Both the position numbers and the translations under genes were made by a program. DNA of 44,819 nt from sequence record OR532847.1; one strand, 5' to 3'. The notes below the pieces were generated by a model. That model had not been told where the DNA came from and searched no databases. It saw only the letters and a list, made by a program, of their open reading frames with translations. This DNA is from Klebsiella phage RCIP0053. Of this stretch, positions 20,220 to 20,451 are shown one piece after another (positions within the stretch are counted from its first letter, which is position 1; the number at the start of each line of letters is the position of its first letter).

Positions 20220-20451
20220 CGAGGACATCAGCGGAAGTAAAACAGATTGAATTCGGTAGAGGACTAGAACAGTTAATACCGAGCGAAGCCTAGTAATAGG
20301 AACGTGTAACGACTATCCAGAAATGGAGTACACCCAAGCGGGTGGAAGCGGTCTGGTGCTACGGCACATGATATAGTCTGAGCTGCATGGGGACATGCAG
20401 AAGTTCATAAGAGAACTGGCAGGGAGTAGCGAACCCTGTTGAACACAACTG
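20220..20451 (+). mobile_element. group I intron 1 in the DNA polymerase gene (ORF-less)
   Basis: Same conserved core as the terminase intron. P1 TTCCGT(exon)/GCGGAA(20231-36). The 3' end at G20451 (or G20454) is uncertain. Confidence 0.65.

Follow-up and report, generated by a model that had tools for sequence, protein, structure and literature searches.

The DNA polymerase gene of Klebsiella phage RCIP0053 (sequence record OR532847.1) was found to be interrupted by three inserts of group I intron type, with a fourth interrupting its large terminase gene (terL). The stretch analysed (the window, 44,819 nucleotides (nt), read on one strand) is the complete 44.8-kb genome of a Gajwadongvirus-like podophage of the Autographiviridae, with terL as its first gene. 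The first polymerase insert, intron A (20220-20451), possesses no open reading frame (ORF), and an earlier note made from the sequence had taken it, together with similar insertion sites, to suggest spread of one intron lineage within this genome by ectopic transposition. The comparisons reported here favour a different explanation. Intron A is probably a splicing-type intron of subgroup IA2 without an endonuclease gene, being one allele of a polymorphic mobile site and mosaic due to recombination between alleles, with the four introns having been acquired site by site and any jumps between genes having occurred earlier.

The closest public relatives of this phage are Klebsiella phages RCIP0089, vB_Kp_Z1 (hereafter Kp_Z1) and Roth32, followed by Escherichia phage ECBP5, Pectobacterium phage PP99, 'Pseudomonas' phage MR4, Vibrio phage JSF38 and three Edwardsiella phages. 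Several of these relatives possess uninterrupted polymerase and terminase genes, which allowed the introns to be mapped exactly. The intron-less genes of ECBP5 were compared to the window using BLASTN and TBLASTN, with junctions placed by the rule that a 5' exon ends in U and an intron ends in G. The ECBP5 polymerase was matched in four blocks and its terminase in two. The polymerase match was found to break exactly at 20219|20452, leaving an insert of 232 nt at 20220-20451 and confirming the bounds given in the earlier note, which had proposed comparison with intron-less homologues and alignment of the four intron cores as checks.

All exons and introns lie on the plus strand. Exon 1 of terL (1-540) ends at a Walker-B-like motif (LILADD|), where an intron of 838 nt (541-1378) separates it from exon 2 (1379-2689). 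Exon 1 of the DNA polymerase (18612-20219, although its start codon may be at 18630) was matched by residues 1-545 of the ECBP5 polymerase and is followed by intron A at NTFR|MRHRF, a position that we take, by an ungapped count, to be approximately residue 670/671 in the numbering of E. coli Pol I. Exon 2 (20452-20687, 236 nt) leads to intron B (20688-21362, 675 nt), inserted in phase 2 within motif B at AKTF|IYAFLYG, and exon 3 (21363-21726) to intron C (21727-22373, 647 nt), which lies in motif C at NVH|DE and possesses a P2 helix. Exon 4 (22374-22706) completes the gene. The four introns, all positioned in catalytic motifs of the two genes, cover approximately 2.4 kb, or 5% of the 45-kb genome. 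When the exons were joined, stop-free proteins of 846 (polymerase) and 616 amino acids (TerL) were obtained, both colinear with those of ECBP5.

That the insert is not an intron at all, and is instead an intein, a programmed frameshift or bypass region, or the boundary between truly split polymerase polypeptides, can practically be dismissed. Such a reading would agree with the GenBank records of relatives, in which the pieces are annotated as separate proteins, and with Rfam scores that fall below threshold. However, an in-frame stop codon lies seven codons into the insert (the ORF ends at 20240), which rules out an intein; the break is situated inside conserved polymerase sequence that is continuous in nine relatives; and a full group I fold with covariation was recovered.

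A search with the Rfam group I intron model RF00028 in E-value mode gave exactly four matches in the window, corresponding to the four inserts, at 38.4, 37.8, 29.9 and 22.1 bits (E-values of 2e-6 to 0.16), with intron A the highest (38.4 bits, E = 2e-6). Twelve introns, comprising those of the four sites and relatives, were then aligned with their ORF-bearing loops trimmed, and a structure was drawn by hand on intron A. The cores of the four introns proved alignable, as the earlier note had supposed. The IA2 structure was paired in 92.7% of the alignment cells, with changes on both sides in 40 of the 63 pairs. Sliding the 3' partners by one to three columns reduced pairing to 34-40%, and none of 500 shuffles reached the observed values of pairing and covariation. 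The minimum free energy fold of a 246-nt stretch containing intron A recovered P1, P4-P6, P7, P7.1, P7.2, P8, P9, P9.1 and P9.2 (z = -4.4).

On intron A, the structure consists of P1, P3-P9, P7.1, P7.2, P9.1 and P9.2, without P2. P1 (20214-20236) is formed by the exon sequence UUCCGU (20214-20219) and the guide sequence GCGGAA (20231-20236), with the splice-site wobble between U20219 and G20231, and compensatory changes were observed at five of its six pairs across intron types. All four introns share a 5' exon ending in U paired to a G of the guide sequence, and a G as last intron base. The catalytic core extends from 20243 to 20400, with P3 at 20243-20249/20349-20355, P4 at 20253-20258/20277-20282, P5 at 20262-20274, P6-P6a at 20283-20305, P7 at 20311-20315/20374-20378, P7.1 at 20316-20327, a GUA linker at 20328-20330, P7.2 at 20331-20344, P8 at 20356-20367 and P9 at 20383-20400. 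Beyond the core lie P9.1 (20403-20416), P9.2 (20420-20438) and a 3' tail ending in the omega-G at 20451. P7 is invariant across the alignment, with compensatory changes in P3, P4, P8 and P9. No ORF of more than 40 amino acids was found inside intron A, only spurious short ORFs, so that the description of an ORF-less intron with a conserved core was upheld, all defining helices being present, with covariation.

The GUA between P7.1 and P7.2 was invariant in 12 of 12 aligned sequences. P7.1 and P7.2 joined by GUA constitute the IA2 criterion that has been applied to the introns of PhiI, W31 and Pf-WMP3 (PMC3428280), and the introns of the window were therefore placed in subgroup IA2. The four inserts are thus predicted to be homologous IA2 group I ribozymes, with intron A a splicing-type member. 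For intron A, exact excision bounds, helices with covariation and restoration of the reading frame are established at the sequence level, and splicing itself is predicted from them. Following transcription, the RNA would fold, P1 being formed between the exon UUCCGU and the guide GCGGAA. The bond after U20219 would be attacked by exogenous guanosine bound at P7, and the freed exon would in turn attack after G20451, joining the exons in frame.

Single IA2 introns in polymerase genes of T7-like phages are well established (PhiI, W31 and Pf-WMP3; PMC3428280), those of PhiI and W31 having been described by Bonocora and Shub 2004, as cited in PMC3428280. The introns of PhiI, W31 and Yersinia phage Berlin share with those of the window the family Autographiviridae, a location in the polymerase gene and the IA2 features (P7.1/P7.2 with GUA, mostly no P2). 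Intron C, whose HNH ORF lies in P6a, is inserted where introns have been reported in PhiI and W31 (site 881, H881|D882 by E. coli numbering; PMC3428280), and intron B where one is annotated in Berlin. Intron B and the Berlin intron have a common P1 loop, and their Endonuclease VII-type ORFs are 67% identical. Intron A differs from all of these in its position and in lacking an ORF. Twort-like and Bastille-like phages provide well-documented cases of polymerase and terL genes with several introns (PMC3428280, PMC11878797). In these Herelleviridae (Twort orf142; pol, terL and rNDPL of Bastillevirinae; PMC11878797), pol and terL are interrupted, as here, by group I introns, of which there are two or three, and the introns likewise carry PHROG 2081-type endonucleases and lie in conserved catalytic motifs of DNA-metabolism genes (PMC11878797). 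These phages belong to another family and infect another host phylum, while the genome of the window is only 45 kb. No description of three introns in one Autographiviridae polymerase gene together with one in terL was found in the literature searched.

Comparison of the four introns with each other and with introns elsewhere bears directly on their supposed spread within the genome. Pairwise identity among the four amounts to 54-65% for the shared core and 55-66% for P3-P9 alone. Over P3-P9, the four are 52-63% identical to the thymidylate synthase (thyA) intron of Bacillus phage beta22 and 51-58% to an intron of a Staphylococcus phage. For each of them, in contrast, an intron with a core identity of 75-100% was found at the same site elsewhere, some of the phages concerned belonging to other genera. 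At the terL site, this identity is 100% to RCIP0089 and Kp_Z1 (99-100% for the intron) and 95% to Edwardsiella phage DT115P1, the terL introns of the three Edwardsiella phages being 91-96% identical to that of the window. At site A, it is 90-91% to RCIP0089 and Roth32 and 88% to Erwinia phage VL73. At site B, it is 78% to phiEa1H and 75% to Ralstonia phage DU_RP_I, whose intron (243 nt) lacks an ORF; the site, P1 loop and ORF type are also shared with Berlin, in which the polymerase is annotated as a joined coding sequence. At site C, it is 98% to Edwardsiella phages DT115P1 and WAG25P1.

A neighbour-joining tree of the introns clustered them by insertion site and never by genome. Occupancy of the sites is patchy even among phages that are 93-99% identical. 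RCIP0089, whose terL is 98.7% identical to that of the window, possesses the terL intron, an ORF-containing intron A and an intron in its helicase gene, but lacks B and C, and ECBP5, PP99, MR4 and JSF38 possess none of the four. The earlier note had set its proposal against one in which related phages hold the same four introns as ancient, fixed features; introns at the same sites do exist in related phages, but they are patchy and not fixed. Site-clustered, patchy introns of this kind are the signature of site-specific homing and loss and not of duplication in place, and the four introns of the window are old and diverged relatives and not recent copies made within this genome.

Recent multiplication of one intron in this genome by ectopic transposition, with the ORF-less copy as the transposing form, is consequently highly improbable. 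The alignable cores and common IA2 architecture would agree with it, as would the six of seven exon bases and the P1 loop that terL and pol B share. However, the identity within the genome (54-66%) equals the distance to introns of Gram-positive phages, every intron has a same-site counterpart elsewhere that is 75-100% identical, and the tree groups the introns by site, with close genomes carrying different subsets. The ORF-less state, which had been offered as evidence of transposition, is one allele of a site at which the other allele carries an HNH gene. As BLASTN with intron A matched 634 phage records from many families, the 'one intron lineage' proposed earlier corresponds to a broad phage IA2 family. 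The common ancestry implied by that term holds, and older jumps are plausible, but recent spread in this genome does not follow.

Two further sets of introns outside the window were examined in connection with this family. The beta22 thyA intron (GenBank L31962, approximately 817-1199) matched 67% of intron A at 81.5% identity in BLASTN, with identical P7.2 (CACCCAAGCGGGTG) and P9.2 (CAGGGAGTAGCGAACCCTG) and a 5' exon that also ends in TCCGT|. It differs from intron A in its gene and host phylum, in a long P5 extension and in an insertion in P8, and is 63% identical over the whole core. Positions 633-676 of the window, within the terL intron, are 100% identical to the polymerase introns of phiEa1H and DU_RP_I, which was first taken as recent exchange. 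This was rejected because the same 25-nt P7-P7.2 module was found in 15 diverse IMG/VR contigs, whose introns are otherwise different, some with ORFs in P8. On another contig, IMGVR_UViG_3300033146_001079 (7400-7800), a diverged terL-type intron was observed with the same terL site, AGACGAT| flank and ORF position; it contains a P7.1/P7.2 module of the type of intron A, and the same two module variants alternate among site-A alleles.

At site A, three states were identified among the phages compared. RCIP0089 and Roth32 carry an allele of 706 nt with a 150-amino acid HNH_3 gene in P6a, Erwinia phage VL73 carries an ORF-less allele of 237 nt, and the site is empty in nine phages (Kp_Z1, ECBP5, PP99, MR4, JSF38, KL01 and the three Edwardsiella phages). 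A fifth group I site was located in the Walker A motif of the primase/helicase gene (GAGTGV|GKT), corresponding to 17013-17014 on the plus strand of the window, where it is empty. This site is occupied by an ORF-less intron of 250-251 nt in Roth32 and RCIP0089 (16240-16490 and 16371-16620 of the respective records) and by a 776-nt, HNH-containing intron in Kp_Z1 (8884-9659 of its record). The Roth32 helicase intron scored 84.7 bits against RF00028. The helicase intron is approximately 80% identical to intron A and thereby closer to it than any other intron of the window. Near-identical phages thus carry different subsets of five intron sites, with alleles both with and without an endonuclease gene at three of them. 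An ORF-less IA2 intron of 231 nt was additionally observed in Klebsiella phage RCIP0099 (2491-2721), at the motif-B-like peptide KAPSFA|AQYG of an unannotated gene. By reading of the sequence, it lies three codons from site B of the window, its host gene being only putatively a polymerase; its core is 75-82% identical to intron A and the helicase introns.

The ORFs of the remaining three introns belong to three families (PHROG 2081 in terL, Endonuclease_7 (PF02945) in pol B and HNH_3 (PF13392) in pol C) and occupy two positions in the ribozyme, the L9.1 loop in terL and the P6a loop in pol B and pol C, in agreement with the unrelated endonucleases at two positions described earlier. The terL intron ORF (753-1358, plus strand, 201 amino acids) has its stop codon in L9.2. 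It matched PHROG 2081, 953 and 374, all annotated as 'HNH endonuclease', and no sequence match was obtained in Pfam, NCBIfam or PDB. Endonucleases of the PHROG 2081 type are known from introns of Bastillevirinae (PMC11878797). A possible degenerate motif LDKD...N...N was noticed near residues 163-189 of this ORF. The Endonuclease VII-type gene of pol B lies in two frames (20789-21019 and 20958-21224, plus strand), the pieces matching residues 1-55 and 58-144 of the intact gp19 of Berlin at 67% identity. As they tile the Berlin protein, a single one-base frameshift can be placed in an A3G3 (AAAGGG) run near 20949-20954, which reflects either early gene decay or a homopolymer sequencing error. 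The HNH_3 ORF of pol C (21828-22244, plus strand) was identified by its Pfam match.

Pol site A, pol site B and the helicase site each have alleles with an ORF and alleles without one. Endonuclease genes have thus been repeatedly gained and lost in the IA2 introns of these phages, and the repeated ORF invasion suggested by the earlier note is borne out. Just upstream of its polymerase, RCIP0089 has a free-standing HNH gene that shares 52% identity over 65 amino acids with the site-A endonuclease of this phage. The site-A endonuclease is also 39% identical to the endonuclease of the Kp_Z1 helicase intron and 33% identical to a free-standing I-HmuI-like HNH gene of the window (4294-4782; NUMOD4, HNH_3 and HmuI NUMOD-like domains), which is itself 100% identical to RCIP0089 gp7 and is a candidate trans-acting nuclease without a known target.

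The history of intron A can be followed in its differences from the other alleles. It differs from the RCIP0089 allele at 26 positions, 22 of which fall within the first 88 nt, with only four in the remaining 144 nt or so. The differences in the first part include the P4 pairs (UCGGUA/UACCGA in the window, UCAGGG/UCCUGA in RCIP0089), J5/6 and the P6 stem. This part of intron A is of the ORF-less type: the ORF-less helicase intron has exactly the same hairpin, GCCUAGUAAUAGG, and VL73 a similar one, and the segment from P6/P6a to P7.1 is identical in intron A and the ORF-less helicase intron of Roth32. Differences from VL73, on the other hand, are concentrated in P7.1-P8. At both site A and the helicase site, alleles with and without an ORF differ by a replaced P6 block and not by a clean insertion. 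Intron A is therefore best read as an endonuclease-free allele that has presumably been kept or recreated by recombination between intron alleles, as part of a cycle in which endonuclease cassettes are gained and lost, and not as a freshly transposed copy.

A simpler origin would be in situ deletion from an ORF-containing intron of the RCIP0089 type, without recombination between introns. The 3' 144 nt, which differ from the RCIP0089 allele at only four positions, would be expected under such an origin, and the frameshifted endonuclease gene of intron B would indicate that decay is under way in this genome. The 22 differences of the 5' 88 nt, with their paired P4 changes, different J5/6 and different P6 stem, would be left unaccounted for, as would the hairpin shared with the ORF-less helicase intron, and no ORF remnant was found in intron A. 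We consider deletion in situ unlikely.

Being ORF-less, intron A could spread only passively. It may be carried along by co-conversion when the neighbouring intron B (236 bp away) or intron C homes, or another endonuclease may cut its site in trans. Such mobilisation of introns without an ORF has been reviewed under the term 'collaborative homing' (the psbA intron with F-CphI, and trans homing of the T4 type; PMC3984707). Like these, intron A lacks an ORF and occupies a conserved site, and its phage encodes a free-standing HNH gene as well (that at 4294-4782); a related HNH gene is found directly upstream of pol in RCIP0089. It differs in that no endonuclease cutting site A was identified, and collaborative homing serves here as a working analogy only. 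The four introns were probably acquired site by site from a pool common to phages, with jumps from gene to gene having taken place earlier.

The similarity of target sites that had been reported for terL and pol B is real. The 5' exons end in AGACGAT| and AGACGTT|, respectively, with six of seven bases identical (the downstream exons share two of seven), and four random T-ending heptamers of the window would include a pair matching this well with a probability of 0.038. AGACG[AT]T occurs four times on the plus strand, two of these being intron sites. A stretch covering the P1 loop and guide sequence, AACAATG-(G)-NCGTCTATAAAC, is also common to the two introns, and the difference at exon position -2 (A in terL, U in pol B) is matched by a change in the guide (U and G, respectively). 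Constraint on the protein does not account for the match, as the two heptamers are in different codon phases. These features are consistent with one of the introns deriving from the other and keeping its guide, and the pattern is as would be expected for guide-directed insertion by reverse splicing, in which donor and target should have in common only the 4-6 nt pairing with the guide.

An important counterpoint is that part of this similarity travels with the intron. The five terL alleles that lack an intron all have TGATGAT| (GCTGATGAT|ATTGAGTC), while GCAGACGAT|ATTGAAAG stands in every intron-bearing allele, including the diverged copy in IMGVR_UViG_3300033146_001079, with only synonymous changes between the two; the AGACGAT heptamer is confined to intron-bearing terL alleles. 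Site C is similar, with GTGCAT| against GTACAC|, again synonymous and beside the junction, and at the terL, B and C sites alike, intron-bearing and empty alleles differ by synonymous substitutions adjoining the junction. The exon similarity is therefore not independent evidence of target choice, and this part of it may stem from the donor flank being co-converted or from selection favouring a stronger P1. In PP99, site B was observed to be empty yet to possess flanks of the intron-bearing type (AAGACGTT|TATATACGC), which may represent precise intron loss or a fully susceptible target.

It is accordingly quite possible, if not the explanation we favour, that the similarity of AGACGAT| and AGACGTT| is secondary, arising from co-evolution of terL exon and guide after an unrelated insertion, or from co-conversion of a donor flank, and is no footprint of reverse-splicing target choice. 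The synonymous differences between empty and occupied alleles at terL and site C speak for this, and a chance probability of 0.038 is only modest. On the other side, the loop AACAATG beside the guide is shared although exon pairing does not constrain it, protein constraint does not account for heptamers in different reading phases, and TGATGAT would still be expected to pair with a guide of the pol B type at five of six positions.

Older jumps between genes within the IA2 family are plausible from these comparisons, the best candidates being the pair of pol B and terL and the group of pol A, the helicase intron and beta22 thyA. The last three and the RCIP0099 intron are related, and their P1 exon strands are partly similar (…UUCCGU| in intron A, …UGGCGU| in the helicase intron, …UUCGCU| in RCIP0099 and …GUCCGU| in beta22 thyA). 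Transposition of group I introns by reverse splicing has been proposed (introns of ribosomal DNA, rDNA; Roman and Woodson; Bhattacharya et al., as cited in PMC3984707), and it still has no direct evidence, with its best support from rDNA (PMC3984707). The present introns resemble that proposal in being related introns at different sites whose 5' exons fit the guide and whose 3' exons are unrelated (two of seven bases for terL and B). They differ in residing in protein-coding phage genes, in a setting where no reverse transcriptase is evident, and with the exon match limited to intron-bearing alleles. Tentatively, and with considerable doubt, this group of phages may preserve footprints of guide-directed IA2 jumps, from polymerase motif B to the terminase Walker-B motif and in a linked set of pol A, helicase Walker A and beta22 thyA introns, with guides retuned by single compensating changes and endonuclease-plus-P6 cassettes later swapped by recombination between paralogous introns in the same genome. 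Were this so, and the jumps made by reverse splicing, it would constitute rare circumstantial evidence for that pathway outside rDNA.

Several observations weigh against the interpretation of intron A as a mosaic, splicing-type allele of a laterally moving intron. At the gathering score (50 for RF00028), no Rfam family passes in the window, and splicing is a prediction. The mosaic pattern could in part reflect helix-wise compensatory evolution and not recombination. Identity of shared modules is weak evidence of exchange, because P7-P7.2 is conserved in the 15 unrelated IMG/VR contigs. The clade of terL and B introns obtained from the P3-P9 core alone was weak in neighbour-joining bootstrap (approximately 50%). 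Identity of introns is only modestly higher than that of their flanking exons (in VL73, 88.6% for the intron and 68-78% for the exons; in Edwardsiella terL, 91% and 84-87%, respectively), and lateral transfer and stronger purifying selection acting on the ribozyme would look alike in this comparison. Lastly, no trans-acting endonuclease for site A was identified.

The exact splice junctions allow for correct annotation of the essential polymerase, terminase and helicase genes of these phages. In the public records of RCIP0089 and Roth32, the exons of all three genes are given as separate, mostly 'hypothetical' proteins and no intron features are recorded, the genes of relatives having been annotated as fragments because the introns fall below the Rfam threshold. 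No paper on introns of Gajwadongvirus-type phages was found in the literature searched, and papers on related phages (the Edwardsiella phages and Kp_Z1) do not mention them. These 45-kb lytic podophages of enterobacteria offer a compact and tractable system for the gain and loss cycle of homing endonucleases and the passive spread of ORF-less introns, and the same set of phages is useful for the question of how group I introns reach new genes by ectopic movement.

Two minor features were noted on the window. An antisense ORF of 135 amino acids overlaps polymerase exon 2. At 23585-23662, the Rfam tRNA model scored 35.3 bits (gathering score 29) in E-value mode only, with nothing listed there in the Rfam gathering run and no tRNA reported by ARAGORN; a tRNA-Ser is annotated at the homologous place in Roth32 and Kp_Z1, and in the window an ORF (23601-24086) overlaps the position.

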